Shown here: piece by piece, positions 2,408 to 61,665 of the stretch
Layout: every line of letters begins with the position of its first letter
How positions within the stretch are numbered: the stretch's first letter is position 1
NCBI GenBank assembly: GCA_040754195.1
Contig: JBFMDJ010000025.1
Location: 85,346-149,345, forward strand
Direction: 5' to 3'
Length of the DNA: 64,000 nt
Source: Pseudomonadota bacterium
GTDB lineage: Bacteria > Pseudomonadota > Gammaproteobacteria > Burkholderiales > Rhodocyclaceae
Made by a program: the position numbers and the translations under genes
The notes under the pieces: generated by a model
What the model saw: the letters and a program-made list of their open reading frames with translations, nothing else
Told to the model about the DNA's origin: nothing
The model's database searches: none

Positions 2408-4269
2408 GTCCGCTGCGCGACAAGCTCGCACTGCCGCCGGCGCTGCCACGTGCGACGTTGCTGTCGATCGCGCGCATCGTGCTGCTCTACGCGCTGTTCG
2501 CCAGCTTGTGGATCCTGCTGTCGGATCGCGCCGTCGCCCTGCTGTTCTTCGCCGCGGACGCCACCCAGTCGATCCAGACCGTCAAGGGCCTGTTCTTCGT
2601 CGCCGCGACCTCGGTGCTGCTGTTCCTCCTCATGCTGCGCTTCGCCATGCGCCACCTCGACGCCACCGACGCGGGGCGCGAAAAAGTCAGTCCCGACGGG
2701 GCGGCGATCCCGTCGTCCCGCCGCCCCCTGCTCGTCTTCGCCGCGCTGTTTTCCGCCCTCTTCGCCCTGCTCGGCACTGTCGCCGTCCAGCAGAACATGC
2801 AGCGCCACCGCGCCGAGGTCGGCGCGCGCCTCGCCGCCATCGCCGCGCTGAAGGCGGCGCAGATCGAGAGCTGGCTCGCCGAGCGCCACCGCGACATCGA
2901 AGTCATCCGCACCGCCCCGCTGCTGCTGGAAACCCTGCCGCGCTGGCGCAAGAGCGGCGACGCCGCCGCCCGGCAGCGCCTCCAGGCGCGCCTCGAAGGT
3001 TTCCGCGCCACGCTGAACGCCAAGGACATCGTGATCTGCGACGCCAAGGGCGACATCCTGCTCGCCGCCGCCAACCACACCCATGCCGCCGAACCCCTGC
3101 GCGCGACCGTGCTACGCGCGTTCGCGGGCGACGGGATCGAAACCAGCGAGCTGTTCCGCATGGACACGCCGCCGTCCAGCCACGTCCATCTCGACTTCGC
3201 CGCGCCGATCCCCGGGCTGGCCGAACCGGCCGTGATCGTCCTGCGCGCCGACGTCGAAGCGGCGCTGTTTCCCCTCCTGGCCTCCTGGCCGCTGCCGAGC
3301 GCCACGGCCGAGGCCCTGCTGTTCCGGCGCGACGGCGACGGCGTGCTGTTTCTCAACGAGCTGCGCCACGAGGAAAACACCGCACTGGCCAAGCGCGTCC
3401 CGCTCGCGGCGGCGGACGTGCTTGCCGTGCAGGCGCTGGCGCCCGGCTACCGGCCCGGCACGCTACTCGAAGGCAGGGACTACCGCGGCGAACCGTCCGT
3501 CGGTCTCGTCCATCCCGTCGCCGGCACCGCCTGGTGGCTGGTCGCCAAGATGGATCGCGCCGAGGCCTTCGACGCGGCGCACCGGGAGACGTTCTGGATC
3601 GCCGTCACCAGCCTGCTCGTATGGCTGGCGGCGCTGGTTTCGGCGGTACTGTTCTTCCAGCGGCGCGAACTGCTGCACGCCGGGCAGCAGCAGCGCGAGC
3701 GCCAGCGGATGACCGCCGAGGCACAGGCGGCCCGGGACATGCTGCGCACCCTGATCGACACCCTCCCCGACCTGGTCTGGCTGAAGGACACCGAAGGACG
3801 CTATCTCGCCTGCAACAGGCGCTTCGGACAGTTCTTCGGCGCCCCGGAAGCCGCCATCGTCGGCAAGACCGACCACGACTTCGTGCCGGCCGAACTCGCC
3901 GATTTCTTCCGCGCCAGGGACCGCGCGGCGATGGCCGCGGGCGGTCCGACAGAAAACGAGGAGGAGGTCACCTATGCCAGCGACGGCCACCGCGAGCTGT
4001 TGCAGACGATCAAGACGCCCTTCCACGGCAGCGACGGGCGCCTCATCGGCGTACTCGGCGTCGCCCGCGACATCACCCGGCTCAAGGCCGCCGAGGCCGG
4101 CCTGAAGGAACGCAACGCCGAACTCGAGCGCTTCAACCGCGCGATGGTCGATCGCGAACTCGACATGATCGCGCTCAAGCGCCTGGTCAACAACCTGTCG
4201 CGACAGCTCGGGCACGCGTCGCCATATGCGCTGCCGGATGGCGACGCCGGCGGGGATGCCGCGCCATGA
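2404..4269 (+). CDS. Membrane sensor protein (TM helices, Cache-like domain, PAS, terminal coiled coil) with no catalytic output domain
   Basis: GTG start overlaps the upstream stop (GTGA). Hydrophobic helices flank a Cache-like region (EGRDYRG...WWLVAKMD). PAS has [15 protein letters not shown]. The protein ends [22 protein letters not shown]; no H-box, GGDEF or EAL. Confidence 0.85.
2681..2706 (-). repeat. Dispersed 25-nt motif copy, inside the sensor CDS
   Basis: AAAAAGTCAGTCCCGACGGGGCGGCG, encoding KVSPDGAA. Confidence 0.85.
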
Positions 4270-7200
4270 CCGGGGCATTCGACGGCGGCGGTGCCCTGCC
4301 CGCGATCCTGCTGTTCCTCTTCGCCACGACGGCGGTACTCGCAATACTGGTTGGTGCCCGCCGCCAGCGACGTGCGGAAGCCGTCATCGCCCGCGACGCG
4401 GAACGCCTGCGCCGCCTCGCCGGCGCCGTCGAGGCGGTCGCCGGCGTGCGCGACCTCGCCGGGCTGATGGCGATCATCCGCCACGCCCTGCGCGAACTGA
4501 CCGGCGCCGACGGCGTCACGCTGGTGCTGCGCGAGGACGGGTACTGCCACTACATCGACGAGGACGCCATCGGCCCGCTATGGAAAGGGCAACGCTTCCC
4601 GCTGGAATCCTGCATCTCCGGCTGGGCGATGCTGCACGCCGAAGCGGCGGTGATCGAGGACATCTACGCCGATCCGCGCATCCCCCACGACGCCTACCGC
4701 CCCACCTTCGTCAAGAGCCTGAGCATGGTGCCCGTCGGCCGCCAGCAGCCGGTCGGCGCCATCGGCTGCTATTGGGCGGCGCGCCACCGCGCGACTGAGG
4801 AGGAACTGGAGCTGCAGCAGTCCCTCGCCGACGCGCTGGCGGTGGGCCTCGGCAACCTGAGACTCTACGAGGAAATGGCGGCCGCCCGCCAGGCGGCCGA
4901 GCTCGCCGCCGAGGAGCTGAAGGTGCAGGCCGCCCTGCTCGCGGCGGCGCAGGAAAACGCCCTCGACGAGCAGCGCCGCGCCCGCATGGCGGCGCTGAAC
5001 CTGATGGAGGATGCCCAGGCCGCGCAACGGCGCGCCGAGGCGGCGCAGGAAGCCCTGCGCGAAAGCGAGTTGAGCTTCCGCCTGCTGACCGAGCAGGTGC
5101 CGGCCATCATCTACCGGGCCTCGCTCGACGCGCAAAGCACGACCCTCTACGTCAGTCCGCACATCGCCGACCTGGGCTACACGCAGGAGGAATGGCTCGC
5201 CGATCCCGAGGCCTGGATCAAGGCCCTGCATCCGGACGACCACGAGTCCGCGCTGGGAGCGCTGGCCGAGTGGCACCGCACGGGCGGAAAACTGGCGCTC
5301 GAATACCGGCTGCGCGACAAGCAAGGCCGCTGGCGCGACTATCACGACCTCGGCGAAATCGTCCGGGACGCCACGGGCCGGCCGCTCTATCTCCAGGGCC
5401 TGATGCTCGACATCACCGAGCGCAAGACCACAGAAAGGGAACTGCGCGAGAGCCGGGAGTTCATCCAGTCGGTGCTCGACAACCTGCCGGTGGGCATCGC
5501 CGTCAACTCGGTCGATCCCGCGGTCGACTTCAGCTACATGAACGACAACTTCCCGAGGATCTACCGGACGACGCGGGAACGTCTGGCCGATCCGGACGCC
5601 TTCTGGGAAGCGGTTTACGCGGACCCGGTCCAGCGCGAGGCAATCCGGCGGCGGGTGCTGGAAGACTGCGCCAGCGGCGATCCCGCGCGCATGCACTGGG
5701 AGGACGTGCCGCTCGCGCGGCCGGGCGAGCCGACCGCCTACGTCGCGGCACGCAACATTCCGCTGCCGGAACGGGGACTCATGATCTCGATGGTCTGGGA
5801 CGTCACCGACCGCAAGCGCGCCGAGGCGGACTTGCGCAAGCTCTCGCTGGCCATCGAGCAGAGTCCGGAGAGCGTCATCATCACCGACACCGCGCGCCGC
5901 ATCGAGTATGTCAACGCGGCCTTCGTCCGCAATACCGGCTACCTGCCCGAGGAGGTGCTGGGCCATACGCCCCGGCTGTTGCAATCGGGCAAGACGCCGC
6001 CACAGGTCATGGCGGAACTGCATGCCGAACTGGACGCCGGCCGCCCCTGGAAGGGCGAGCTCATCAACCGGCGCAAGGACGGCAGCGAGTATGTCGACTT
6101 CGCCATCATCGCGCCGCTGCGCCAGCCGGACGGACGGATCACCCACTACGTGGCGGTGCAGGAAGACATCACGGAACGCAAGCGCATCGGCACCGAGCTC
6201 GACAAGCACCGCCACCATCTCGAGGAACTGGTGGAGCAGCGCACGGCGGAGCTGGAGGAGGCCCGGCGCCAAGCGCTGGCCGCCAGCGCGGCGAAGAGCG
6301 CCTTCCTCGCCAACATGAGCCACGAGATCCGCACGCCGATGAACGCCATCGTCGGGCTGGCCCACCTGCTGCAGCGGCGCATCGCCGATCCCGAGCAGCG
6401 CGACCGCCTCGACAAGATCGTCGAGGCCTCCCACCACCTGCTGGGGCTGATCAACGACATCCTCGACCTGTCGAAGATCGAGGCCGGCAAGCTGACCATC
6501 GAGGTCGCCGAATTCGACCTGCTGCGCGTGCTGGAAAACGTCTCCGCGCTGGTGGCCGAACGCGCGCAGGCGCGCGGGCTGGAGCTGATCATCGACATCG
6601 ACCCCGCGCTGACGGAAGCGCCGCTGTTGCTGGGCGACGCCACGCGCGTGCGCCAGATCCTGCTCAACTACGCGAGCAACGCCGTCAAGTTCACCGAGCA
6701 GGGCTCGGTCACGCTGCGTGCGCGCCGCATCGAGGACGGCGCCAGCGACCTGCTGCTGCGGCTGGAGGTGGAAGACACCGGCATCGGCATCGCGCCCGCC
6801 GACCAGGCACGCCTGTTCCAGTCCTTCGAGCAGGCCGACGCCTCGATCACGCGCCGCTACGGCGGCACCGGGCTGGGACTGGCGATCAACCGCCGGCTTG
6901 CCGAGCTGATGGGCGGAGAGGCCGGCGTCGAAAGCGCGCCGGGCGTCGGCAGCCGCTTCTGGAGCACCGCGCGACTGGGCAAGAGCGCCAGGACCGAACG
7001 GTGCTGGAACACGCCGCTGCTGCGCGACCGCCGCGCGCTGGTCGTCGATGGCAGCCCCGGCGCCCGGTCGGTCCTGACGCAGATGCTGCATACCCTGGGT
7101 CTCCACGTCGACGCGGCGCCGGACACCGACGCCGCGCTGGCGGAGGTCGCCGACGCCGACGGGGAAGGCGTGCCCTTCGACGTCGCGCTGTTCGACTGGC

Positions 7201-8476
7201 AGACGCCCGACCTGCCGGGGCGGAACATCGCGCAGGAAATGCATGCCCTGCCGCTGAGCCGCTACGCGCCCCACCTGCTGGCGGTGGGCCCCGATCAGGC
7301 CGAGGCGCGCGCGGCCGCCGCGGCCGCCGGCTTCGCTGTCCTGCTGGCCAAGCCGGTCACCCTGTCGGCGCTCAACGACACCCTGGCGAACCTGCTGCGC
7401 GACGCGCCGGCGACGACGGCCCCGCCGCCGCCCGACGAACAGATACTGGCGCGCGCGGCACGGGCGCGCGGCCTGCGCGTCCTGGTCGCCGAGGACAACC
7501 CGGTCAACCAGCAGGTGGCGCACGACCTGCTGGGCGACGCCGGCCTGACGGTCGACCTCGCCGACAACGGCGCCCAGGCGGTGGAAATGGCGCGCGGCAC
7601 GGCCTACGACGCCATCCTGATGGACATGCAGATGCCGGTGATGGACGGCGTCGAGGCGACGCGGCGCATCCGCGCGCTGCCCGGCCGGGCGCAGACGCCG
7701 ATCCTGGCGATGACGGCGAACGCCTTCAGCGAGGATCGCCAGCGCTGCCTGGACGCCGGCATGAACGACTACCTCGCCAAGCCCGTCGATCCCGCCACCC
7801 TGTTCGCCACCCTGCTGCGCTGGCTGCCACAGGCGACCGCCATGACCGCGGTCCCGGCAGCAGAGGCCGAAGCGCCGGCCGAAGACGATGCCGCGCTGCG
7901 CGCGCGGCTCGACGGCATTCCCGGCCTCGACGCCGGGGCAGGGCTGCGCAGCGTGCGCGGCCGCGTCGCGCGCTACGCCGGTCTGTTGCGGCGCTTCATG
8001 GAAAATCACGGCGGCGACGGCGCGCGACTGCGCGCGCAACTGGCGGCGGGAGACGCGACGGCGGCCGGCCAGACCGCCCACGCGCTTAGGGGCGTGGCGG
8101 CCACCTTGGGCGCCGTCGCCGTCGCGGCGACGGCCGAAGCGCTGGAAAATGCGCTACGCCAGCAGATGGATGCTGACCACGACGAGGCCTGCGCGGCGGT
8201 GGAGCAGGCGCTGGCGACGCTGATGAGCGCCCTGCATGCCGCCCTGCCGCCCATGCCGCCGCCGGAAACACCCGTCGGGGACGCCATCGCGCTGCTGGCC
8301 GAGCTCGAAACCCTGCTGGCGAGCGACGACACCGACAGCAACCGCGCCTTCGCCGCCGCCGCCCCCCTGCTGCGCCGCCGTCTCGCCGGCGCTGACTTTT
8401 CCGCGCTGGAACGGCACATCGAGGCTTATGATTACCCGGCGGCGCTGGCGCTGGTGCGCGCGCTGCGCCAACGCCC

Positions 8477-8480
<4 letters not shown>
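4266..8480 (+). CDS. Hybrid sensor histidine kinase (TM-GAF-PAS x3-HisKA-HATPase-REC-REC-HPt)
   Basis: True start is ATG 4266 (ATGA overlap) inside ORF 2289..8480. H-box [15 protein letters not shown]-box [11 protein letters not shown] boxes [15 protein letters not shown], second [11 protein letters not shown], HPt [12 protein letters not shown]. Confidence 0.93.
8376..8400 (+). repeat. Dispersed 25-nt motif copy, inside the hybrid kinase CDS
   Basis: CGCCGTCTCGCCGGCGCTGACTTTT, encoding RRLAGADF. Confidence 0.8.
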
Positions 8481-10434
<1,954 letters not shown>

Positions 10435-10438
<4 letters not shown>

Positions 10439-11976
10439 ACGCAACCGACACCCCCGCCCGCATCCTCTGCGTGGATGACGAGCCCTCGATTCTCGCCGCG
10501 CTCAAGCGCGTGTTCCGTCCCCATGGCTACACGGTGCTGACGGCCACTTCGGGTCGCGAGGCGCTGGCGCAGCTCGAAGCCGAGCCGGTCGACCTCGTCA
10601 TCAGCGACATGCGCATGCCCGAGATGGACGGCGCGCAGTTCCTCGAAAAGGTGTTCGATAAATGGCCCGCCACCAAGCGCATCCTGCTGACCGGCTACGC
10701 CGACGCCGCCGCCACGATCGCCGCGATCAACCGCGGCAAGATCTGGCGCTACGTCGCCAAGCCGTGGAACGACGACGAACTGATCCTCACCGTCCAGCAG
10801 GCGCTGGCGCACCGCCAGCTGATGGACGAGAACGCGCGGCTGACCCGGCTCACCCAGGCGCAGAACGAGGAACTCAAGGAGCTCAACGCCGGTCTCGAAC
10901 GCAAGGTCGCAGAGCGCACCGCGCAGCTCGCCGAGGCGCTGGAATCGCTGGAGACCGCCCATGCGCAGTTGCGCCAGGGCTTCCTCGCCACCGTGCAGCT
11001 GTTCTCCGGCCTCGTCGAGCTGCGCGGCGGCAAGCTGGCCGGCCATTCGCGCCGCGTCGCCGACATCGCGCGCCGCCTCGCCGAGCAGATGGGGCTTTCC
11101 GAGGCCGACCAGCAGGACGTCTTCCTCGCCGCGCTGCTGCACGACATCGGCAAGCTCGGCCTGCCCGACGCCCTGCTCAACGCGCCCTTCAACGCGCTGC
11201 CGCCGCAGGGCAAGGCCGAGGTGATGCGCCATCCGGTCAAGGGCCAGCAGCTGCTGATGTCCGTCGAACAGCTCGCCAGCGCCGCACGCATCATCCGCCA
11301 CCACCATGAATGCTTCGACGGCGGCGGCTACCCCGACCGCCTGGCCGGGCTGGCGATTCCGCTCGGCGCGCGCATCCTGGCCCTCGCCAACGACTACGAC
11401 GCGCTGCAGGCGGGTACGCTGACCCTGCATGTCCACACCGCACTCGAAGCCCAGCAGGTGTTGCAGAAGGAACGCGGCCACCGCTACGCCCCGGAGGTCG
11501 TGGATGCCTTCTTCGCCATGCTGGCCGAGGAAGAGGCCGCACGGCCGAAGGAACTGTCCGTCGGCACCGGCCAGCTCAAGCCGGGCATGGTGCTGACGCG
11601 CGAGCTGACGCACCGCGACGGCTATACCCTGCTGCCGCGCGGACGCGTGCTCAACGCCGACATCATCGCCAAACTCGCGGCCCTTGAAGAGGCCGAGGGC
11701 CACGCGCTGACGCTGTTCGTCCGCAACGACGCCGCACCCGGCGTGCTGCGCGACCCGCGCCCCGAACCGCCGCCGCGTCTCTGGAAGGAGGTGGAGCTTC
11801 CCTCCGGACGACTCAAGCCCGGCATGGTGCTGGCGCGCAACCTCAATCACAAGGAAGGCTACCTGCTGCTGGCGCGCGGCTGCGCGCTCGACGAGGTGAT
11901 CATCAAGCAATTGCGCGAGTTCGAGCGCATCAACGGCGAGCCCATCAACGTCTTCATCCGCATCGAGTCGCATTGA
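10435..11976 (+). CDS. REC-HD-GYP response regulator (c-di-GMP phosphodiesterase) with a duplicated C-terminal module
   Basis: REC CVDDE/ISDMRMP; LLHDIGK; HHHECFDGGGYP; LANDYDAL; two LKPGMVL repeats at the C-terminus. Confidence 0.92.
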
Positions 11977-11980
11977 AGCC

Positions 11981-13318
11981 ATGGAAGCCTTCGTCTGGAA
12001 CGAGCACTTCACCACCGGCATCGAATCGGTCGATACGCAGCACCACCACCTGGTGGACATCGTCAACCGGCTCGGCGATCTGCTGATCGCCGCACAACCG
12101 GTCGACAAGGAAACGATCGAGGACATCTTTCGCCAGCTCGCGGAATACGCCAACACCCATTTCCGCGACGAGGAGCATCTGATGCGCACGGCCGGCGTCA
12201 GCGAGGCGCACTACCAGCACCACTGCAAGGTCCATCGCGACTTCGTCGCCCAGGTGAAGTCGATGTGGCAGGCGCGCGGTCTGATGAGCGCGCCGGCCGA
12301 CACGCTGCACGGCTTCCTCGCCGCCTGGCTGTCCTACCACATCCTCGGCGAGGATCAGGAAATGGCGGAGGAAATTCGTCGCCTGAAGGGCGGGCCGGCC
12401 CTGGCCCACGCTCCCGGCGCGGACGGCCGCGACCGCTCCACCGGCGCCCTGCTGCACGCGCTGCGCAACCTGCACGGCGTCCTTTCGCACATGAACCAGG
12501 ACCTGATGCGCGCCAACGCCTCGCTGGAGGAGGAGGTGGCAACGCGCACGCGCGAGCTGCTGCAATCGGAGAAGATGGCCTCGATCGGCCAACTCGCCGC
12601 CGGCGTCGCCCACGAAATCAACAACCCGATCGGTTTCGTCAACTCCAACCTCGGCACGCTCGGCCGCTACGTCGACGACCTGCTGCGCCTCGCCGACCTC
12701 GGCGCCGCCACGCCGGACGGACAGGCGCTCGGACAGGAACTCGACCTCGACTTCCTGCGCGCCGACCTGCGCGACCTGCTGCGCGAATCGCAGGACGGCC
12801 TCGACCGCGTGCGCAAAATCGTCGCCAACCTCAAGGACTTCTCGCGCGTCGACCAGGCCGAATGGCAAGTGGCCGACCTGCTCGCCGGGCTGGAGAGCAC
12901 GCTCAACGTCGCCTGGCACGAACTGAAATACAAGGCCGACATCGTGCGCGAGCTGCGCCCCCTGCCGCTCGTGCGCTGCGTGCCGGCGCAGATCAACCAG
13001 GTCTTCCTCAACCTGCTGGTGAATGCGGCGCAGGCGATCAAGGAACACGGCACCATCACGCTGCGAAGCGGGGTGGAGGGCGACACGGTCTGGATCGAGG
13101 TGGCCGACAACGGCTGCGGCATGGACGAGACCACGCAACGGCGCATGTTCGAGCCCTTCTTCACCACCAAGCCGGTCGGTACCGGCACCGGGCTGGGCAT
13201 GTCGCTGACCTGGGACATCGTCACCAAGCACGACGGCGAGATCGCCGTCGACAGCGCGCCCGGCCGAGGCACGCGCATCCGCGTCACGCTGCCGGTCGGC
13301 GGGCCGTCCGGCGGCTGA
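11981..13318 (+). CDS. Bacteriohemerythrin-fused cytoplasmic histidine kinase
   Basis: Hemerythrin iron ligands: W-x-E...DTQHHHL, HFRDEE, HCKVH, WLSYHILGED. Followed by H-box AGVAHEINNPIGF and a HATPase domain. Confidence 0.92.
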   Translation: MEAFVWNEHFTTGIESVDTQHHHLVDIVNRLGDLLIAAQPVDKETIEDIFRQLAEYANTHFRDEEHLMRTAGVSEAHYQHHCKVHRDFVAQVKSMWQARGLMSAPADTLHGFLAAWLSYHILGEDQEMAEEIRRLKGGPALAHAPGADGRDRSTGALLHALRNLHGVLSHMNQDLMRANASLEEEVATRTRELLQSEKMASIGQLAAGVAHEINNPIGFVNSNLGTLGRYVDDLLRLADLGAATPDGQALGQELDLDFLRADLRDLLRESQDGLDRVRKIVANLKDFSRVDQAEWQVADLLAGLESTLNVAWHELKYKADIVRELRPLPLVRCVPAQINQVFLNLLVNAAQAIKEHGTITLRSGVEGDTVWIEVADNGCGMDETTQRRMFEPFFTTKPVGTGTGLGMSLTWDIVTKHDGEIAVDSAPGRGTRIRVTLPVGGPSGG

Positions 13319-13331
13319 TCGAAAGCTGGTA

Positions 13332-13382
13332 CCGTCCCGCCGGGACTGACTTTCCGGCGCCGTCCCGCCGGAACTGACTTTT
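13332..13382 (+). repeat. Two direct tandem copies of the 25-nt motif between convergent genes
   Basis: CCGTCCCGCCGGGACTGACTTT (13332-13353) and CGCCGTCCCGCCGGAACTGACTTTT (13358-13382). Confidence 0.92.
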
Positions 13383-13387
13383 CCTGT

Positions 13388-14374
13388 TTATTCCGCCGCG
13401 AAGTCGAGGTTGCGCGCCCGGCACATCGAGGCCAGCACCTTGTTCTCGATGTCGAGCTTGCGCCGCATCAGCGCCTGGGCGACGGCGGCGCGCAGCTCGA
13501 AATCCGTCCACGGCTTGGCGAGGTAGCAGTGGATGTGGGCGAGGTCGACGGCGGCGATGACGTCTTCCATGCCGGCGGCGCCCGAAAGCAGGATGCGCGC
13601 GCAGTCGGGCTGCTTCTCGGCGAAGATTTCGAGCAGGCGCACGCCGTCGAGTTCCGGCATCTTGTAGTCGGCGACGACGCAGGAAAACTCGACGTTCTCC
13701 ATCATGCGCACGGCGTGCGCCGGCGAGGTGCAGACCTGCACGCTGATCTGCGCGTCCTCCAGCGAGACGACGCGGCCGTGGCCGACGTCGGCGCGCATCG
13801 CGGCGAACACGTCGTCGAGCCGGCTGCGGTGCGTCAGGTCGCGCGCCACCGCGTGGCAGACGTTCTCGTCGTCATCCACGACGAGGATCTGGTCGACCGC
13901 GCCGGACTCGACCGGCAGCTCGATGCCCTGCTTGCGCAGCACGTCGGCCATCTGGCGGTTGCGCCGGGCGGCCTGGCGGAAATCGACCGCCTGGCCGATC
14001 GAGCTCTTGAGGAAGTAGCTCGTCCAGGGCTTGGGGATGAATCGGTAGATGTGCGTCTCGTTGATCATGCGCACCAGCGCGTCCATGTCGGTCTGTCCCG
14101 ACAGCACGAGGCGCGCGCAATCCGGCTGGATCTCGTAGAGCGCCTTGAGGAAATCCAGCCCGGTCATGCCCGGCATGCGGTAATCGGAGATCACCACGGC
14201 AAAGTCTTTTTCCCGCGCCCGCGCGAGCGCCTGGGCGGGGTCGCTGAAGCCTTCGACGGCATAGCGGTAGCGCCCCAGCGGCGGCGTGTTCAGCTCGCGC
14301 CGGATGGCATTGACGATGTTGGGTTCGTCATCGACGACCAGGACGGCAAATTCGGGACGTTCTGCGGTGGTCAT
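13388..14374 (-). CDS. Tandem double-receiver (REC-REC) protein with no output domain
   Basis: Two complete REC domains: VVDDE/ISDYRMP/LSG/PKPW and VVDDD/VADYKMP/LSG/AKPW. Confidence 0.88.
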   Translation of the reverse strand: MTTAERPEFAVLVVDDEPNIVNAIRRELNTPPLGRYRYAVEGFSDPAQALARAREKDFAVVISDYRMPGMTGLDFLKALYEIQPDCARLVLSGQTDMDALVRMINETHIYRFIPKPWTSYFLKSSIGQAVDFRQAARRNRQMADVLRKQGIELPVESGAVDQILVVDDDENVCHAVARDLTHRSRLDDVFAAMRADVGHGRVVSLEDAQISVQVCTSPAHAVRMMENVEFSCVVADYKMPELDGVRLLEIFAEKQPDCARILLSGAAGMEDVIAAVDLAHIHCYLAKPWTDFELRAAVAQALMRRKLDIENKVLASMCRARNLDFAAE

Positions 14375-14428
14375 GGGCAGGCCTCTCTCGATACCAAGCG
14401 CAAGGCCCCAGTATAACCATGTCGCGTT

Positions 14429-14443
14429 GCGACATTCGGTCGC
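14429..14443. promoter_or_regulatory. RegA/RegR/RoxR-like box between the REC-REC gene and tonB
   Basis: GCGAC-ATTCG-GTCGC matches the GCG(G/A)C-N5-GTCGC consensus and is overlapped by the inverted repeat ATGTCGC-GTT-GCGACAT (14419-14435). Confidence 0.55.
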
Positions 14444-14507
14444 AGGCTAGGTTTCCGGCCTGCGCGGGTGGATAATCCGCCTTGCCCCTGTTCCGTCCTT
14501 CGTTCAC

Positions 14508-15194: not shown

Positions 15195-15196
15195 CC

Positions 15197-15916
<720 letters not shown>

Positions 15917-15924
15917 GAAGCAGC

Positions 15925-16341: not shown

Positions 16342-16343
16342 AT

Positions 16344-16375: not shown

Positions 16376-16444
16376 ACATTCCAAGCCTCGGCCAACCCTA
16401 GCATTCGTTCCTTCGAAAGTCGTTCCATTTCAATCCGATACGGA

Positions 16445-21390: not shown

Positions 21391-21391
21391 C

Positions 21392-50286: not shown

Positions 50287-50300
50287 CGGACGATTATCGC

Positions 50301-51308
50301 ATGGCCCATCAAGTCACCCTCCAACCCAGCGGTCACGGCTTCGCCGTCGCGGACGGCGCCACGATCCTCGACGCCGGCCTCGACGCCGGCCTCATCCTGC
50401 CCTACGGCTGCAAGAATGGCGCCTGCGGAGCATGCAAGGGCAAGGTGCTCGCGGGCACGGTCGACCACGGCGCGGCACAGGACGACGCCCTGCCGGCCGC
50501 GGAACGCGCCGCCGGCATGGCCCTGCTGTGCTGCGCGAAGCCGCTCACCGACCTGACGCTCGAAGTGCGCGAGGTCGCCGCCGCCAAGGAAATCCCGGTC
50601 AAGACGCTGCCCTGCCGCGTGCAATCGCTGGAGCGCGTCGCCGCGGACGTGATGGTCCTTCGCCTCAGGCTGCCGACCAACGAGCGCATGCAGTTCCTCG
50701 CCGGCCAATACATCGAATTCCTGCTCCCCGACGGCAAGCGCCGCGCCTTCTCGCTGGCCAGCGCCCCCCATGCCGACGACCTGCTGGAGTTGCACGTGCG
50801 CTACGTTCCCGGCGGCAACTTCACCGAACATGTCTTCAACACGATGAAGGAGAAGGACATCCTGCGCATCGAAGGGCCCTTGGGTACCTTCTTCCTGCGC
50901 GAGGAATCGACGAAGCCGATCATCCTCGTCGCCGGCGGCACCGGCTTCGCGCCGATCAAGGGTCTCGTCGAGCATGCGCTGCATATCGGCATCCAGCGTC
51001 CGATGCATCTCTACTGGGGCGCGAAGGACCGCGCCGGCCTGTATCTGCATTCGCTGGCCGAAAGCTGGACGTCCATCCATTCGCATTTCAGCTTCACGCC
51101 GGTCCTTTCCGACCCGGATGCCGACTGGAACGGCCGGACCGGACTGGTGCATGAGGTCGTGATGGCCGACCATCCCGACCTGTCGCCCTTCCAGGCCTAC
51201 GTCTGCGGCGCGCCGGCGATGTGCGAGGCGGCGCTGAAGGATTTCACGGCACGCGGCCTGCCCAAGGAAGAGTTTTTCGCCGACGTGTTCTCCTACGCGC
51301 CGCGCTGA
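50301..51308 (+). CDS. [2Fe-2S]-FAD-NAD oxidoreductase (AscD/CDP-6-deoxy-glucoseen reductase-like)
   Basis: YGCKNGACGAC, RAFSLAS, AGGTGFAP, YVCG; ATG 50301. Confidence 0.88.
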   Translation: MAHQVTLQPSGHGFAVADGATILDAGLDAGLILPYGCKNGACGACKGKVLAGTVDHGAAQDDALPAAERAAGMALLCCAKPLTDLTLEVREVAAAKEIPVKTLPCRVQSLERVAADVMVLRLRLPTNERMQFLAGQYIEFLLPDGKRRAFSLASAPHADDLLELHVRYVPGGNFTEHVFNTMKEKDILRIEGPLGTFFLREESTKPIILVAGGTGFAPIKGLVEHALHIGIQRPMHLYWGAKDRAGLYLHSLAESWTSIHSHFSFTPVLSDPDADWNGRTGLVHEVVMADHPDLSPFQAYVCGAPAMCEAALKDFTARGLPKEEFFADVFSYAPR

Positions 51309-51309
51309 A

Positions 51310-51334
51310 AAAAGTCAGTCCCGGCGGGACGGCG
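51310..51334 (-). repeat. Dispersed 25-nt motif, perfect copy between convergent genes
   Basis: AAAAGTCAGTCCCGGCGGGACGGCG, immediately after the reductase stop codon. Confidence 0.92.
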
Positions 51335-51340
51335 GAAGGT

Positions 51341-52061
<721 letters not shown>

Positions 52062-52069
<8 letters not shown>

Positions 52070-52832
52070 CGCTGCCTCCCAGATAGGCTTCGATGACCTT
52101 GGGGTCGCGCTGCACGACCTCGGGCACGTCCTCGGCGATCTTCTCGCCGTAATCGAGCACGGCAACGCGGTCGCACAGGCCCATCACGAGCTTGACGTCG
52201 TGCTCGATCAGCAGCACCGTCAGGCCGTCGGCGCGCAGGCCTTCGATGAGCTGGCGCAGCCCGGCGGTCTCGGTGGCGTTCATGCCGGCGGCCGGCTCGT
52301 CGAGCGCCAGCAGCTTCGGATCAGTGGCCAGCGCCCGGGCGATCTCCAGCCGACGCTGGTCGCCGTAGGACAGGTGGCGCGCAAGATCGCCGGCGCGATG
52401 GGCGATGCCGACATAGTGCAGCAACTCCTCGGCGCGGCGGCGGATGGCTGCCTCCTCCTCACGCTGGGCGCGCGTGCGCAGGATCGCGCCGAACACGCCC
52501 GCATGCGTGCGCACGTGCCGGCCGACCATGACATTCTCGATCGCCGTCATGTTGCCGAACAGGCGGATGTTCTGGAAGGTGCGCGCGATGCCGGACTGCG
52601 CGACGCGATGCGGCGCGCCGAGCCGCAGCGGCGCGCCGTCGAACAGCACGTCGCCGTCGTCGCGCGCATACAGGCCCGTCAGCACGTTGAAGAAGGTGGT
52701 CTTGCCCGCGCCGTTCGGACCGATCAGGCCGTAGATTTCGTTCGCCCGGATCGTCAGCGAAACGTCCTTGAGCGCCTGCACGCCACCGAAGCGCTTGCCG
52801 ATGCCGCGGGCTTCGAGCAACACCCCGGTCAT
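52062..52832 (-). CDS. livG: Branched-chain amino acid ABC ATPase LivG
   Basis: GPNGAGKTT, IARTFQNIRLF, LSYGDQRR, LDEPAAG; ATG 52832. Confidence 0.94.
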
Positions 52833-53878
52833 GCGTCCTTCTCGCTCATCTCGCGGCGGTGGCGCGACTCGGGCCACAGGCCGGCGGGGCGGAAGCGCAT
52901 GGTCAGCACCAGCGCGGCGCCGAAGATCAGCATGCGCAGCACCTCGGGCTCGACCAGCAGGCGCCCGAACAGCGCCTTCTGCGCCGGCTCGACGGTGTAG
53001 CGCAGGAACTCCGGTACGAAGGACAGCAGCGTCGCTCCGGCGATCACGCCCCAGACATTGCCCATGCCGCCCAGCACCACCATCGACAGCACCATGATCG
53101 ACTCGTGCAGCACGAAGCTTTCCGGGCTGATGAATCCCTGCATCGAGGCGAACATGCCGCCGGCGACGCCGCCGAAGGAGGCGCCCATCGCGAAGGCCAG
53201 CAGCTTGACGTTGCGCGTGTTGATGCCAGCCGCCTTGGCCGCGACCTCGTCCTCGCGGATGGCGACCCAAGCGCGGCCGATGCGCGAGTCCTGCAGGCGC
53301 AGATTGACGACGATGACGCCCAGCAGCAGGAGCAGCAGCATGTAGTAATACTTCGTCGGCCCGGTGAAGTCGATGCCGAGCAGCGTGTCGGTGCGGGTGA
53401 AGTTCATCCCGCCCAGGCTCATGCCGTCGATGCGCGTGATGCCCTTCGGCCCGTTGGTGATGTTGAAGGGCGACGACAGGTTGTTCATGAAGATGCGCAC
53501 GATCTCGCCGAAGCCGAGCGTGACGATGGCGAGGTAGTCGCCGCGCAGGCGCAGCGTCGGCGCGCCGAGCACGGCGCCGGCGACGCAGGCGAGCAGCGCG
53601 CCCACCGGCAGGATCGCCCAGAAGGACAGATGCAGATCGAAATGCGGCGAGGCGAGCAACGCCCAGGTGTAGGCCCCGACGGCGTAGAAGGCGATGTAGC
53701 CGAGGTCGAGCAGGCCAGCCATGCCGACGACGATGTTGAGGCCGAGCGACAGGAAGATGAACAGGATGGCGAAGTTGGCGATGCGCACCCAGGCGGTGCC
53801 GACCTGCGTCAGCACCAGCGGCAGCATCAGCAGCGCGAGGGCGACCAGGGCGACGCCGAAGGCTTTTTTCCGCGTCAT
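52829..53878 (-). CDS. livM: Branched-chain amino acid ABC permease LivM
   Basis: GLLDLGYIAFY, LRGDYLAIVTLGFGEI, VVLGGMG; ATG 53878. Confidence 0.94.
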   Translation of the reverse strand: MTRKKAFGVALVALALLMLPLVLTQVGTAWVRIANFAILFIFLSLGLNIVVGMAGLLDLGYIAFYAVGAYTWALLASPHFDLHLSFWAILPVGALLACVAGAVLGAPTLRLRGDYLAIVTLGFGEIVRIFMNNLSSPFNITNGPKGITRIDGMSLGGMNFTRTDTLLGIDFTGPTKYYYMLLLLLLGVIVVNLRLQDSRIGRAWVAIREDEVAAKAAGINTRNVKLLAFAMGASFGGVAGGMFASMQGFISPESFVLHESIMVLSMVVLGGMGNVWGVIAGATLLSFVPEFLRYTVEPAQKALFGRLLVEPEVLRMLIFGAALVLTMRFRPAGLWPESRHRREMSEKDA

Positions 53879-54867
53879 GCGCGCTCCGACACTCTTTCGC
53901 CGAGCAGGCCCGAGGGGCGGAACACCAGCACGAGGATCAACACGAGGAAGGCGAACACATCCTGGTAGTTGCTGCCGAACAGGACGGCGTGGCCGCCGTC
54001 GGCGCAGCGCTCGGTGAGCCAGTCGCCCACCAGCGGCCAGTGGCACAGGTCGGTGAGGTCGCCGATGTAGCCGGTGCCGAGCGCTTCCACCAAGCCGAGC
54101 AGGATGCCGCCGAGCATGGCGCCGGCGAGGTTGCCGATGCCGCCCAGCACCGCCGCCGAGAAGGCCTTGAGGCCGAGGGTGAACCCCATCGTGTAGTGGG
54201 CGATGCCGTAATAAGTGCCAACCATCACGCCGGCGACTGCGGCGAGCGCGGCGCCGATGACGAAGGTGGCGGCGATCACGCGGTTGGCATCGACGCCCAT
54301 CAGCGCCGCGACGCGTACGTCCTCGGCCGTGGCGCGGATGGCGATGCCGAAGCGCGTCCGATACACGAACCAGGTGAGGCCCGCCATCATCGCCACCGAG
54401 AGCAGGATGATGGCGATCTGCACGCTGCTGATCGCCGCGCCGCCGATGACGAAACTGGTGTTCTCCATGATCTGCGGAAAGGCACGCGGATCGCGCCCCC
54501 AGATCAGCAGGGCGAGATGCTGCAGGATGATCGACATGCCGATGGCGGTGATCAGCGGCGCGAGGCGCGGCGCATGCCGTAGCGGCCGGTAGGCCAGGCG
54601 TTCGAGCAGGTAGCCGATCGCCATGCAGACGGGAATCGCGGCGACCACGCCGGCCAGCACGATGACGAGCGGCGGCAGGGGCAGGCCGGCGCCCGCGAGG
54701 GCCATGATGACGCTAAACGCCACCATCGCGCCGATCATCACCACCTCGCCGTGGGCGAAGTTGATCAACTGGATGACGCCATAGACCATCGTGTAGCCAA
54801 GCGCGACGATGGCATAGACGCTGCCCGTGGTCAGGCCGTTGATGATCTGCTGCAGGAAGATGTCCAC
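53875..54867 (-). CDS. livH: Branched-chain amino acid ABC permease LivH
   Basis: ALGYTMVYG, INFAHGE, KAFSAAVLGGIG, RPSGLLG. Confidence 0.94.
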   Translation of the reverse strand: MDIFLQQIINGLTTGSVYAIVALGYTMVYGVIQLINFAHGEVVMIGAMVAFSVIMALAGAGLPLPPLVIVLAGVVAAIPVCMAIGYLLERLAYRPLRHAPRLAPLITAIGMSIILQHLALLIWGRDPRAFPQIMENTSFVIGGAAISSVQIAIILLSVAMMAGLTWFVYRTRFGIAIRATAEDVRVAALMGVDANRVIAATFVIGAALAAVAGVMVGTYYGIAHYTMGFTLGLKAFSAAVLGGIGNLAGAMLGGILLGLVEALGTGYIGDLTDLCHWPLVGDWLTERCADGGHAVLFGSNYQDVFAFLVLILVLVFRPSGLLGERVSERA

Positions 54868-56753: not shown

Positions 56754-58733
56754 TCAGCTCGCTTGCAAAACCTCCGCCAGCTCGCTCACATTCGCCATCG
56801 GCCTGAGGCAACTAACGCCCCGGCAGACCCAGGCGTTGACATGCGCGGACTCCGGTTTCGCCAGCATGTCCGGCAGTTCGGCCGGCCCCGATCCATTGGG
56901 CAGTTCGATCGCCATGACGTCGCGCCGCGCCGCAAGCAGCGGCCGCCACGCCGGCATCTCCTCCGCCGGCCCGCGCAGGATGACGATGGCGGCCGGCGCC
57001 AGCGCTTCCTCCAGCGCTCCGGCCAGCGTGGCCATCCCCGCGACCTGGCGACGCAGCTGCGGCATGAAGCACTCGATCGCGCGTCGCGCGGCTTCGAGAT
57101 AGCGTGGCTCCCCGAGCAGATGTCCGAGGCGCTGCAAGACGAGCGCCGCCACGCCGTTGCCGGCCGGCATGGCATTGTCGTGGCCGCTCTTCGGACGCTG
57201 GATCAGTGCTTCATGGTCATGGGCGGTGAAAAAGAATCCACCGCGCTCCGCGTCCCCGAAGCGCCCGAGCATGGCCTCCGCGATCTCCCGCGCGAAGGCG
57301 AGATCGGCGGGACGATAGCCGGCCTGCAGCAGTTCGAGCAGCGCGGCGAGCAGGAAGGCGTGGTCGTCGAGATAGGCGGACAGGCGGTCCGTCGCGAAAA
57401 GCGCGCCGTCCCGCCAGCGCTGATTTTTCAGGAAATCGAGGGCGCGCCGCGCGGCCGCCAGCCAGTCGCCGCGCCCGAATACGCGGGACGCGTGCGCCAG
57501 CCCCTCGATCATCAGCGCATTCCAGGCCGTGAGAATCTTGTCGTCACGCGCGGGGCGCACGCGCCGCTCCCGCGCGGCGAACAGCTTCGCGCGTGCCGAT
57601 TCGAGCAGGACAGCCTCCCCCCCCACCGGTTCCGCCGCGCGACGCAAATGCCAGTGGCGGTTCTCGAAATTAGGCGGACCGTCCACTCCCAAGCACCGTC
57701 CCGCCAGGACTGACTCCTGCGGCGTCAGCAGGCTGGCGATCTCGGCACGGTCCCAGACGTAGAACCTGCCTTCTTCACCTTCAGAATCTGCGTCGAGCGC
57801 GGCATAAAAGGCTCCCTCGGGTCCGGTCATCTCGCGCATGAGCCAGCCGGCGATGCCTTCGGCGACTTCCCGATGGCGCGCCGCGCCGGTCAACGCCCAA
57901 GCGTCGGCATAGAGGCCCAGCAGCGGCCCGTTGTCGTAGAGCATCTTTTCGAAATGTGGGATCTCCCAGCGCTCATCGACGCTGTAACGGCAAAAGCCGC
58001 CGCCGATCTGGTCGTGGATGCCGCCGGCCGCCATCCGCTCCAGTGTGAACAGCGCCGCCTCCCGTGCCGGCGGATCATCCGTCCGACGCAGCAGAAAAGC
58101 CAGATCGGCCGGATGCGGAAACTTCGGCGCACCGCCAAAGCCGCCCGCTTCCCGATCGAAGCTGCCCAGCAGCAGGACGCGCAGCGCCTTGACGGGGGCG
58201 GCATCGATGCCATCGGCATCCGGCTCGGATGCGGGGCGGGCGAGAGCGGCGAGAACTTCGCGATTCTGCGCCTCGACCGCCGCCCGCTTTTCGCGCCAGG
58301 CCAGGCCCACCTGTTCGCACAGCCCGGCGAAACCCGGCAGGCCGTAGCGCGCTTCCTTCGGGAAGTAGGTGCCGCCATAAAAGGGCGTGCCGTCGGGGGC
58401 CAGGAACAGCGTCAACGGCCAGCCGCCGGGACGGCCGGTAAGCATCTGGTGGGCGGTCTGGTAGATCTGGTCGAGGTCCGGACGCTCCTCGCGATCGACC
58501 TTGATATTGACGAACAGGCGGTTCATGACCGCCGCCACCCCGGCATCCTCGAAGGATTCGTGTGCCATCACATGGCACCAGTGGCAGGCCGAATAACCGA
58601 TCGACAGCAGAATCGGCAGGTCTTCGCGACGCGCCTGCGCAAGCGCTTCGGCATCCCATGGCTGCCAGGCCACCGGGTTGTGCGCGTGCTGGCGCAGATA
58701 GGGCGAGGTTTCCCCCGCCAGTCGGTTCGACAT
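56754..58733 (-). CDS. YyaL/SSP411-like thioredoxin-domain protein
   Basis: [56 protein letters not shown]. Confidence 0.92.
57696..57715 (+). repeat. Dispersed 25-nt motif copy, inside the YyaL-like CDS
   Basis: CCGTCCCGCCAGGACTGACT, 19/20 match to the core; encodes ESVLAGR. Confidence 0.78.
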
Positions 58734-58800
58734 CTCGGGCATGGAGCCTCCGCTGCTGGGAGGCTCACTATACCCGATTATTTTTGTCTACTATGCCCTG

Positions 58801-59398: not shown

Positions 59399-59821
59399 TC
59401 ATCCGCCGAACAACGCGCGCCACCAGCGCTTGCGCCCTTCGGGCAGCGGCGCGGCGGGCCGGAGATCCTCCGGCGGCACCCGGCAGAGAATCCAGCCCGG
59501 CGGCGGCGGGTTGTCCGAAAAGCCGCAGGATACGCCGAGATTGTTCGGGTCGAAGATCTTCACGAAGCTCGGCGCGTCCAGTTGATCGGCATACACGATA
59601 CCGCAATAGTCGTGATGGTGTTCCTTGTGCAGCAGGGCGTCGATCTTCTCGATGAAGGTGCTCACCGCGCCCGCGTCCGCCGGAACGTCCGGCACCGCTT
59701 CGCCGACGGCATAGACATACCAGCCGGCGGCGGGGTCGATGCGCCGCCAGAAGGCATCGAGCTGCTCCCAGGACATCACCGACCAGAGCCGGCCGCTATA
59801 GAGGGAATGGAAGTCGCTCAT
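59399..59821 (-). CDS. Hypothetical protein translationally coupled to ilvD
   Basis: ATGA overlap with the ilvD stop; 140 aa with typical codon usage; [10 protein letters not shown] and GVSCG motifs. Confidence 0.75.
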
Positions 59822-61665
59822 GACAGCTGGGCGACGTTGCGCACCGCGCCGGTGTCGGCGCTGGTGGTGAGCGCCGCGTAGGCCCTGAGCGCCGCCGACA
59901 CCGGGCGTTCCCGTTTGGCGGGCCGCCACGCCGCCGCGCCGCGCGCATCCATCGCCGCGCGCCGTGCCGCCAGCACTGACTTTTCGATCACGAGATTGAT
60001 GCTCCGGCTCGGAATGTCGATCTCGATGGTGTCGCCCTCCTCGATCAGGCCAATGGTGCCGCCCGCCGCCGCCTCGGGCGAGGCATGGCCGATGCTCAGG
60101 CCCGATGTGCCGCCGGAGAAACGTCCGTCGGTCAGCAGCGCGCACACCTTGCCGAGTCCCTTGGACTTGAGATACGAAGTCGGGTAGAGCATCTCCTGCA
60201 TGCCGGGTCCGCCTTTCGGGCCTTCATACAGCACGATGACGATGTCGCCGGCGACGATCTGGTCGGAAAGAATCTTCTCGACGGCCTCCTCCTGCGACTC
60301 GCAGACGCGCGCGCGGCCGGTGAATTTGAGGATCGAGTCGTCGACGCCCGCCGTCTTGACGATGCAGCCCTTCTCGGCGATGTTGCCGAACAGCACGGCG
60401 AGGCCGCCATCCTGCGAGTAGGCGTGGGCCCTGTCGCGGATGCAGCCGTTGGCGCGGTCGAGGTCGAGAGTTGGATAGCGACGGCTTTGCGAAAAGGCGG
60501 TCTGGGTCGGCACGCCGCCCGGCGCGGCGCGGTAGAACTCATGTACCGGCTTTGCGGTGTTGCGCTTCACGTCGCAGCAATCGAGCTGCTCGCCGAGCGA
60601 GGGGTAGAGTACGGTCGAACAGTCGCGGTTGATCAGGCCGGCGCGATCCAGTTCGCCGAGGATCGCCATGATGCCGCCAGCGCGATGCACGTCCTCCATG
60701 TGGTATTTCTGCGTCGCCGGCGCCACCTTGGCGAGGCAGGGCACCCGGCGCGACATGCGGTCGATGTCGTTCATCGTGAAATTCACGCCCGCCTCCTGCG
60801 CGGCGGCCAGCAGGTGCAGTACGGTATTGGTCGAGCCGCCCATCGCGATATCGAGCGCAATCGCGTTTTCAAAGGCAGCGAACGTGGCGATCGAGCGCGG
60901 CAGCACGGAAGCGTCGTCCTGCTCATACCAGCGCCGGCACAACTCGACGATGCGGCGGCCGGCCTTGACGAAGAGCTTCTCGCGATCCGCATGCGTCGCC
61001 AGCAACGAGCCGTTGCCGGGCAGCGAGAGGCCCAGCGCCTCGGTCAGGCAGTTCATCGAGTTGGCGGTGAACATGCCGGAGCAGGAACCGCAGGTCGGGC
61101 AGGCCGAACGCTCCATCGCCGCCACTTCCTTGTCGGTATTGTGGTCGTCGGCCGCCTCGATCATCGCGTCGATCAGGTCGACCATGCGGTATTCGCCATG
61201 CCACTTCACCTTGCCGGCCTCCATCGGCCCGCCGGAAACGAAGATCGCCGGAATGTTGAGGCGCAGCGCGGCCATCAGCATGCCGGGGGTGATCTTGTCG
61301 CAGTTCGAGATGCAGACCATCGCGTCTGCGGTGTGGGCGTTGCACATGTATTCCACCGAGTCGGCGATCAGCTCGCGCGAGGGTAGCGAATACAGCATGC
61401 CGCCGTGGCCCATGGCGATACCGTCGTCGACGGCGATGGTGTTGAACTCCTTGGCGATGCCGCCGGCCGCCTCGATCTGGCGCGCCACCAGCTGGCCCAT
61501 GTCCTTGAGATGGACGTGCCCCGGCACGAACTGCGTGAAGGAGTTGACCACCGCGATGATCGGCTTGCCGAAATCGCCATCCTGCATGCCGGTGGCGCGC
61601 CACAGGGCGCGCGCGCCAGCCATGTTGCGGCCGTGGGTGGAAGTGCGGGAACGGTAGGCGGGCAT
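59818..61665 (-). CDS. ilvD: Dihydroxy-acid dehydratase
   Basis: [56 protein letters not shown]. Confidence 0.97.
59960..59984 (+). repeat. Dispersed 25-nt motif copy, inside ilvD
   Basis: CGCCGTGCCGCCAGCACTGACTTTT, encoding KSVLAARR. Confidence 0.82.

Follow-up and report, generated by a model that had tools for sequence, protein, structure and literature searches.

Analysis of a 64,000-nt stretch of DNA from a Rhodocyclaceae bacterium (assembly GCA_040754195.1, contig JBFMDJ010000025.1, positions 85,346 to 149,345; hereafter the window) revealed a dispersed 25-nt motif that occurs within and between genes, is shared with many Rhodocyclales genomes, and is spelled differently from genome to genome. 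We propose, with what we judge to be an even chance of being right, that this motif represents a new family of DNA-uptake-enhancing sequences, in the sense of the DNA uptake sequences (DUS) of Neisseriaceae and the uptake signal sequences (USS) of Pasteurellaceae, kept by molecular drive in a Rhodocyclales lineage. The lineage in question would comprise metagenome-assembled genomes (MAGs) of the Rhodocyclaceae/Sterolibacteriaceae type, Sulfuritalea sp. PRO1, and Candidatus Desulfobacillus denitrificans.

Copies of the motif in the window

The window, which has a G+C content of ~68%, was searched with the 25-mer CGCCGTCCCGCCGGGACTGACTTTT allowing at most 3 and then at most 7 mismatches, and 100 dinucleotide shuffles served as a control. 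At most 3 mismatches returned 9 copies against 0.00 expected, and the word CTGACTTT is present 13 times against 0.56 expected. The relaxed search yielded 16 copies in 64 kb, or about one per 4 kb, whereas chance would give none. All 14 copies listed in an earlier reading made from the letters of the window (the sequence-only reading) are among them, each displaced by at most 3 nt and with the same strand split of 9 forward and 5 reverse, and two copies are additional (41755-41779 on the minus strand and 57404-57428 on the plus strand). Most CTGACT hexamers of the window belong to the motif, as had been noted (15 of 18).

Genes were identified by a codon log-odds caller and Pfam scans, resulting in 57 called genes and an acyltransferase gene (~41.5-42.5 kb) that was missed by the caller and recovered with Pfam. 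All called genes have chromosomal housekeeping or signalling roles. Twelve of the 16 copies are inside genes (5 sense and 7 antisense), and the other four are intergenic and positioned just past stop codons. The gene map and Pfam domains agree with the earlier assignment of ten copies to coding sequences (CDSs), namely those for a PAS/Cache sensor, a hybrid histidine kinase, a DsbD_2 protein, an FAD-dependent protein, an M16 peptidase, IspE, YggU/DUF167, a THUMP methylase, a DUF255 protein, and IlvD; the use of both orientations and of several reading frames by these copies is likewise visible on the map. The copies are located as follows:

2682-2706, minus strand: copy with 2 mismatches, antisense in the PAS/Cache sensor gene 2404-4269
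8376-8400, plus strand: copy in sense orientation in the hybrid histidine kinase gene 4266-8480, ~80 nt ahead of its stop
13330-13354, plus strand: intergenic copy, the first of a tandem pair in a 69-nt gap between convergent genes
13358-13382, plus strand: intergenic copy with 1 mismatch, the second of the tandem pair in the same 69-nt gap
21022-21046, plus strand: copy in sense orientation in the DsbD_2 membrane protein gene 20690-21364
21367-21391, plus strand: intergenic copy beginning 2 nt past the stop of gene 20690-21364
25566-25590, minus strand: degenerate copy in sense orientation, close to the 5' end of gene 24033-25649 for the FAD-dependent protein
26727-26751, plus strand: copy in sense orientation, close to the 5' end of the M16 peptidase gene; in relatives L070 and L072, the CCGAC dialect is found at the orthologous site
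28444-28468, plus strand: relic CACCCTCCTGTCCGCCCCGACTTTT in the gene of the second M16 peptidase, decayed but retaining the CCGAC of the other dialect; the site is intact in L070, L072, and L069
34056-34080, minus strand: perfect copy, antisense in ispE, where it encodes KVSPGGTA within a variable loop; 7 of 7 genomes compared have the motif at the orthologous site
41755-41779, minus strand: degenerate copy, antisense in the acyltransferase gene; its orthologous counterpart is L071 15428-15452
43289-43313, plus strand: copy antisense in yggU/DUF167; L070 has the CCGAC dialect at the orthologous site
48746-48770, minus strand: copy in sense orientation in the THUMP/RlmL-like methyltransferase gene
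51310-51334, minus strand: perfect copy, 6 nt past the stop of the ABC ATPase gene 51341-52069, in the 32 nt that separate two convergent genes
57404-57428, plus strand: copy antisense in the DUF255/thioredoxin-like gene 56754-58742
57694-57718, plus strand: degenerate copy, antisense in the same DUF255 gene 56754-58742
59960-59984, plus strand: copy antisense in ilvD, encoding KSVLAARR, which aligns without gaps to EEELAQRR of a solved IlvD

Anatomy of the motif

A total of 89 copies, taken from the window and from related loci and none of them chosen by the search pattern, were combined in a position table. Information content drops to zero outside positions 1-25, and the element is therefore exactly 25 nt long with unconserved flanks. 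Positions 1-6 (CGCCGT) and 16-25 (RCTGACTTTY) are highly informative and positions 7-15 are not, a pattern of conserved ends and a drifting middle that had been described by eye. Across dialects, the two strong blocks read YGCCGT and CYGACTTT and the middle is weak.

The middle of the motif could form a short hairpin, and three results bear on it. (i) Among 159 copies redefined by the two end blocks only, the putative stem pairs 5-17, 6-16, 7-15, 8-14, and 9-13 show no compensation; for example, 7G is combined with 15G 27 times and with 15C 3 times. (ii) The consensus sequences of three dialects fold no better than their shuffles (z = -1.26, -0.76, and +0.26); the window dialect reaches -7.2 kcal/mol, and the TGCCGT..CCAGCGCCGAC dialect, at only -2.6 kcal/mol, has essentially no hairpin. 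(iii) The sole Rfam match in the window is a tRNA-Gln, and no match coincides with the motif. Taken together, these results exclude an RNA structure, and thus the conserved feature is a bipartite DNA sequence, in agreement with the original suggestion that sequence rather than structure is under selection.

Dialects and concerted change at orthologous sites

Syntenic DNA was fetched around IspE orthologues of relatives (loci L069-L074); since these loci were fetched by IspE synteny, they were not chosen for their motif content. Comparison of spellings revealed CGCCGT..CTGACTTT in the window and ..GCCGACTTT or TGCCGT.. in relatives. Locus L070 contains 7 copies of CGCCGT..GCGCCGACTTT in 21 kb, TGCCGTCCCGCCAGCGCCGACTTT is found 7 times in L071 and 5 times in L072, and L073 uses TGCCGT..GCGCTGACTTT. 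The counts of CTGACTTT relative to CCGACTTT are 13:2 in the window, 21:1 in AP021857, 16:1 in WYAY, 13:0 in WBUF, and 11:0 in PQAF (T-dialect), compared with 0:7 in L070, 1:7 in L071, 2:5 in L072, and 1:5 in CALARK (C-dialect). The first position varies as well, and CAWJAK has T there (TGCCGT) in 20 of its 22 copies.

Five orthologous sites with flanks of 70-82% identity were compared, located in ispE, the gene of the first M16 peptidase, yggU, the acyltransferase gene, and the gap after a Usp gene. Each of them bears the motif in several genomes, four involve the window, and two involve L073. At all five sites the window or L073 has T at position 18, where the other genomes have C. The T-dialect genomes encode KVSxGGTA in IspE (KVSPGGTA in the window), whereas KVGAGGTA is found elsewhere; thus, the switch of dialect altered the IspE protein. 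The dialects and their concerted change at orthologous sites are the strongest new evidence on the nature of the motif.

The orthologous copies themselves predate the genera compared. The motif is identical at orthologous sites whose flanks are 72-85% identical, and in 120 IspE orthologues the peptide KVGAGGTA/KVSxGGTA is retained within an otherwise indel-rich loop. IspE of the window has at most ~82% identity (BLASTP) to any other protein in a collection of 5.8 billion proteins.

Origin of the coding copies

Alignments of the coding copies with motif-free sequences lack insertions. In IspE, KVSPGGTA belongs to a variable loop with 3-4 fewer residues than its counterpart in the solved enterobacterial structures; in IlvD, no indel separates KSVLAARR from EEELAQRR of a solved structure; and where L071 has copies of its own, in pth and yggS, the window and L070 align with equally long sequence that lacks the motif. 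These alignments exclude spread by insertion of a mobile element, and an insertional origin of the coding copies was rejected. As judged from the sequences compared, the coding copies arose in place through substitution, and both in IspE and in IlvD the substitutions fall in variable regions.

Placement relative to genes, frames and replication

The distribution of copies was analyzed in 560 kb of DNA (88% coding and ~12% non-coding by our own gene calls, made in the related loci with a simple caller). Loci L001-L068 were each selected by one exact copy, which was left out of the statistics; the DNA next to that copy may still be non-random. Among 94 copies independent of the search, 60 are in CDSs (64%; 36 sense and 24 antisense); the remaining 34 lie between genes or at their edges, a share of 36% compared with ~12% of non-coding DNA. 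Genes could be called on both sides of 59 intergenic or edge copies: 43 of these follow the 3' end of a gene in sense orientation, often 0-15 nt past the stop, and 25 of the same 59 are between convergent genes and only 6 between divergent ones. Intergenic copies are mostly single and do not form inverted pairs.

Coding copies use five reading frames, with AVPPGLTF and KVSPGGTA as favoured peptides, and are enriched in the two outermost deciles of genes, the first and the last. The sixth, TGA-containing frame is used only where the motif provides the stop codon. This is the case in nine genes of L001-L068, in which positions 19-21 of the motif are the stop, the C-termini read, for example, ..PSRRD-stop, and the motif straddles the gene end. 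Orientation of the copies is not associated with local GC skew, taken as a proxy for replication direction (41:31 and 32:28), and a polar motif of the type of Chi or the FtsK-orienting polar sequences (KOPS) was discarded on the basis of this proxy.

Spread across Rhodocyclales

A scan for an exact 22-mer in one genome per GTDB species yielded, among the matches listed, at least 68 loci from at least ~27 assemblies, none of which is the window itself. Almost all of the listed matches are labelled Rhodocyclales, Rhodocyclaceae, Sterolibacteriaceae, or Betaproteobacteria; Sulfuritalea sp. PRO1 is among them, as is Ca. Desulfobacillus denitrificans with its complete genome. The organisms that bear the motif come from environmental settings (groundwater, sludge, and bioreactor). 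With the finding copy left out, the density of the motif is 0.15-0.35 per kb in related loci and 0.24-0.35 per kb in L070-L072; by extrapolation, 0.25-0.35 per kb corresponds to roughly 700-1000 copies per 3-Mb genome.

A few matches belong to MAGs labelled Bacteroidia, Planctomycetota, Thermomonas, and others. Around the motif, four pairs of loci (L010/L026, L024/L060, L027/L057, and L035/L058) are 99-100% identical, and their MAGs carry the labels Bacteroidia, Pseudomonadota, Rhodocyclaceae, Sulfuritalea, or Thermomonas. Given this identity of oddly labelled contigs to contigs of other MAGs, the matches outside the lineage are probably binning contaminants.

Sulfuricystis multivorans (L069; AP018718, 141173-162015) has only 2-4 degenerate copies in 21 kb, all of them at sites orthologous to copies of its relatives (M16 peptidase, fpg, and ispE), and no other over-represented word was found in these 21 kb. 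From its sequence, it looks like a candidate for a lineage in which the drive stopped or the system was lost.

Comparison with known systems

A 2025 survey treats Neisseriaceae and Pasteurellaceae, both of them host-associated, as the only two families with uptake sequences, and describes for DUS and USS the same association with terminators, frame bias, and dialects as seen here (10.1101/2025.10.24.684340). Further work on DUS and USS has been published (PMC3630211, PMC2817400), and the latter describes USS written into variable protein regions. An intragenic word that is spread over the genome and spelled genome by genome has so far been a signature only of the uptake sequences of Neisseria and Haemophilus relatives.

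The motif shares with DUS (AT-GCCGTCTGAA and its dialects) the betaproteobacterial host, a genome-wide excess, the use of both orientations, permissive positions in CDSs, enrichment at gene 3' ends, and lineage-specific dialects that are tracked by individual copies. The T-initial dialect also has the 7-mer TGCCGTC in common with DUS, which is a lead and not evidence. However, DUS is a contiguous 10-12-mer with an invariant CTG core, whereas the motif is a bipartite 25-mer in which (T)GCCGTC is shared, the CTGAA that follows GCCGT in DUS is replaced by CCCGCC, and the CYGACTTT block stands 10 nt downstream. Since the contiguous CTGAA core is absent, the motif is not a DUS dialect, and a DUS proper of the GCCGTCTGAA type was rejected. 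The single rather than inverted-pair arrangement of intergenic copies and the environmental rather than host-associated hosts are further differences.

USS (AAGTGCGGT with AT-rich flanks) is similar to the motif in its total size of ~25-30 bp, in the combination of a strong core, weaker positions, and a T/A tract, in the location of about two thirds of copies in CDSs with preferred frames and in variable protein regions, and in the existence of subtypes (Hin and Apl). The reverse complement of the motif 3' block, AAAGTCGG, resembles the USS core AAAGTGCGG, again as a lead only. In contrast to the motif, USS belongs to an unrelated class (Gammaproteobacteria) and consists of one core with AT tracts; the motif has two GC-rich blocks in a GC-rich host.

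HIP1 (highly iterated palindrome 1; GCGATCGC) of cyanobacteria is likewise hyper-abundant, present within genes in all frames, conserved across species, and debated as to function; unlike the asymmetric, bipartite 25-nt motif, it is an 8-bp palindrome linked to methyltransferases.

A candidate uptake sequence

The observations described above imply, at the level of sequence, that hundreds of 25-nt sites, some of them in essential enzymes, are maintained and readjusted throughout the genome by a sequence-specific force acting in trans. The sequence-only reading had likened the distribution to DUS and USS because it is intragenic, independent of frame and orientation, and protein-changing; this likeness holds and now extends to many Rhodocyclales genomes, to dialects, and to concerted change at orthologous sites. 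Among published systems, it is the uptake sequences of Neisseriaceae and Pasteurellaceae that combine all of these properties, and the best explanation of the motif would therefore be a new uptake-enhancing family. From this comparison we infer uptake bias, a receptor, and competence itself.

The following scheme could account for the observations: (i) a surface component of the type IV pilus or competence machinery would bind double-stranded DNA with YGCCGT-N10-CYGACTTT, (ii) the contact would be bipartite, the two strong blocks ~17 bp apart centre to centre being the sites touched by the receptor, (iii) conspecific DNA would be taken up preferentially, (iv) after homologous recombination, motif-bearing alleles would be over-transmitted, which constitutes molecular drive, (v) copies would build up via point substitution where tolerated, that is, in variable protein loops, at gene termini, and in the first bases past stops, and (vi) when receptor specificity shifts, all copies of a genome would follow, giving rise to dialects. 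If so, and here our confidence falls just short of even, the motif would add to DUS and USS a third family of uptake sequences that can be recognised independently, and no earlier family would come from free-living environmental bacteria; this family would be bipartite, 25 bp long, and split into at least 3-4 loop-rewriting dialects, and its shared TGCCGTC would hint at a common betaproteobacterial origin with DUS.

The receptor of DUS in Neisseriaceae is ComP, and ComN/PpdA is predicted to have this role in Pasteurellaceae. The meningococcal ComP sequence, validated against PDB 2M3K, was used as a query. A word-indexed search retrieved close Neisseria relatives only; a profile search of 1.84 billion representatives retrieved a wider ComP-like family, and the only names recovered for the ten distant hits that were looked up are Neisseria, Neisseriaceae, and Crenobacter. 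In the 670 kb of DNA examined, the only matches to ComP are generic pilin N-terminal helices.

Gene clusters for type IV pilin-like proteins are present in L035 (~2200-6500) and L068 (~5200-6500), with N_methyl domains, one GspH/FimT-like minor pilin, and motif copies nearby. These pilins match only N_methyl and GspH and no ComP_DUS domain.

PilT and PilU, encoded at 45604-47799 of the window, had been counted in favour of uptake by the sequence-only reading. The two genes are indeed present, and the argument built on them is weak because pilT and pilU are common in Betaproteobacteria.

Several points weigh against an uptake function: (i) the searchable literature yielded no experiment or publication showing that this lineage is naturally competent or takes up DNA with a bias, (ii) no receptor was identified in the ComP searches or in the 670 kb examined, (iii) at 25 nt the motif is longer than DUS (10-12 nt) and the USS core (9 nt), (iv) the T-dialect is not monophyletic and is scattered on a neighbour-joining tree of IspE, a single gene that cannot separate repeated switches from poor resolution, and (v) the motif occurs in mobile elements. 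As to the last point, an exact scan of 2.9 million IMG/VR contigs gave 0 matches for the window dialect, but the sister CCGAC dialect is present in 51 'viral' contigs of this collection, which a pure mark of self would not predict; an argument from absence in phages was consequently withdrawn. With the finding copy left out, the density in IMG/VR contigs is 0.087 per kb, below that of chromosomal loci, whereas some elements bearing an integrase, a ParB-like protein, or a methyltransferase are dense, at or above the density of the host (for instance, 7 copies in 13 kb in L115).

An integrated element with a phage integrase, an HNH protein, a DUF927 primase-like protein, and a Gp49/HI1420 pair is located downstream of ispE in L074 (CAYZEA010000002.1, ~11660-20860), in the region corresponding to the tRNA-Gln of the window. 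It carries a perfect TGCCGT..GCCGAC copy within the DUF927 gene, and the two chromosomal copies of the locus read GTCGAC; this split of spellings may reflect a further dialect or mark transfer from another lineage, two copies being too few to tell. A non-coding tandem repeat was observed in L080 (IMG/VR contig 3300009945_000063), which spans 629-2123 and consists of 4.7 units of 316 bp with 91% match; each unit has one motif copy, at 882, 1198, 1514, 1830, and 2215.

Alternative explanations

The copies in prophages are compatible with drive acting on the whole chromosome and would equally fit a binding site for a host factor. Their presence in mobile elements keeps alive a second explanation, which we regard as unlikely but deserving serious attention: the motif may be the site of an abundant sequence-specific chromosomal protein outside uptake (nucleoid-associated, chromosome-organising, or engaged in self-marking or defence), with sites kept by selection and dialects produced by co-evolution. 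Two conserved blocks around a variable middle suit a protein that touches two DNA segments, genome-specific dialects need some trans-acting specificity factor, and elements with an integrase or ParB, like the IMG/VR contigs, could benefit from carrying a host site. The known chromosome-organising sites compared here differ from the motif, however: parS, matS, and the sites of SlmA and Noc are palindromes present in low numbers, and KOPS have a skewed orientation, whereas the motif is asymmetric, unskewed, and found about once per 4 kb. In addition, hundreds of dispensable sites in loops, maintained at a cost in amino acids (G-A to S-P in IspE), would arise more easily through drive, if we follow the argument published for USS, and no candidate protein was found.

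The enrichment past gene ends is also what would be expected of a transcription terminator or 3'-end module, in which the hairpin GTCCCGCCGGGAC precedes a T-run and the coding copies are by-products of gene conversion. The 43 of 59 copies just downstream of a gene, which have the T-run 3' of the stem, the 25 copies between convergent genes, the perfect copies in the 32-69-nt convergent gaps of the window, and the folding energy of the window dialect all agree with it. Nevertheless, we consider this explanation improbable: folding does not exceed that of shuffles and nearly vanishes in the TGCCGT..CCAGCGCCGAC dialect, the stem lacks compensatory changes, four bases (TGAC) separate it from the T-run, the most conserved positions are outside it, and ~64% of the copies are intragenic, 40% of these being antisense. 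Read support was also sought, with window positions 49000-54000 as the test stretch, and none of the public RNA or DNA runs contained over 10% of its sampled words.

The sequence-only reading had named a degenerating family of repetitive extragenic palindromes (REP) as its main alternative. A hairpin repeat of this kind, related to REP and bacterial interspersed mosaic elements (BIME) or to the Ssn-associated NTS/SRM repeats, would owe its copies to a REP-associated tyrosine transposase (RAYT) or be the target of a GIY-YIG single-strand nuclease, and would leave the coding copies as degenerate remnants. NTS/SRM are ~30-nt hairpin repeats clustered around genes and flanking the GIY-YIG gene ssnA, and the 5' CGTC and short GC palindrome of the motif loosely resemble the NTS consensus CGTCATTCCCGCG..GCGGGAAT (PMC11893778). 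Both groups of repeats are, like the motif, short, abundant, and lineage-specific, with a consensus that evolves together with a cognate protein; in addition, the two tandem copies at 13330/13358 are reminiscent of REP clusters. Unlike the motif, they are extragenic, hairpin-dependent, and clustered near the cognate gene. The motif copies are mostly intragenic (~64% in CDSs), arose by substitution rather than insertion, do not extend past 25 nt, show neither covariation nor a folding excess of the hairpin, and at orthologous sites are older than the genera compared. No Y1 transposase/RAYT, GIY-YIG, integrase, or other transposase domain was detected by Pfam in the window (57 called genes and 2 overlapping alternative open reading frames (ORFs) in the 41.5-42.5 kb gap; three of the scanned ORFs, two of them called genes, returned no match whatsoever). 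The REP explanation is thus largely refuted and very improbable, and an Ssn-related motif was rejected since its hairpin is not conserved and a GIY-YIG domain was not found in the window by Pfam.

Equally improbable is a by-product of mutational or repair bias with no function of its own, as proposed for HIP1-like oligomers: drive lacking a function for the organism would also give intragenic, frame-independent copies and concerted evolution, but an asymmetric 25-nt target with at least 15 informative positions needs a dedicated recognition protein, we know of no repair system of such specificity, and the strong enrichment right past stop codons suggests additional selection.

Other features of the window

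A gene for a protein with WD40 repeats and a caspase domain (Peptidase_C14) is located at 38360-40696 on the plus strand, between ychF and a GNAT acetyltransferase gene. It has no motif copy and belongs to the longest motif-free stretch of the window (34080-41755). Since ychF and the GNAT gene are adjacent in L070 and L071, it looks inserted in the lineage of the window. The tRNA-Gln (anticodon TTG) is at 34750-34826 on the plus strand, between ispE and prs.

Positions 2-14374 encode a dense signalling cluster, which includes a GGDEF-EAL-PAS-receiver protein, the PAS/Cache sensor, the hybrid histidine kinase (1404 aa, with GAF, PAS, and Hpt domains), a HATPase protein, an HD-GYP-type response regulator, a hemerythrin-histidine kinase, and a double-receiver protein. 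Two ORFs have good codon-usage support and no Pfam match: one at 18765-19631 (plus strand), between the genes of a TonB-dependent receptor and a 4Fe-4S protein, and another at 59399-59821 (minus strand), directly downstream of ilvD.

Significance

If the motif is an uptake sequence, transformation with a preference for self would not be peculiar to mucosal commensals and pathogens, and a third family of such sequences would exist in environmental denitrifiers and sulfur oxidisers. The longer, bipartite signal would offer a new means of finding the receptor and its mode of DNA binding, and the natural series of dialects, including relic-only lineages such as Sulfuricystis, would allow molecular drive to be compared with selection. 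The motif may also prove practical as a marker in binning, in checks for contamination, and in tracing horizontal transfer through metagenomes of wastewater and groundwater. Even with another function, a 25-nt word that overrides amino acids of core enzymes and changes in concert would demand a dedicated recognition system that is not yet described.

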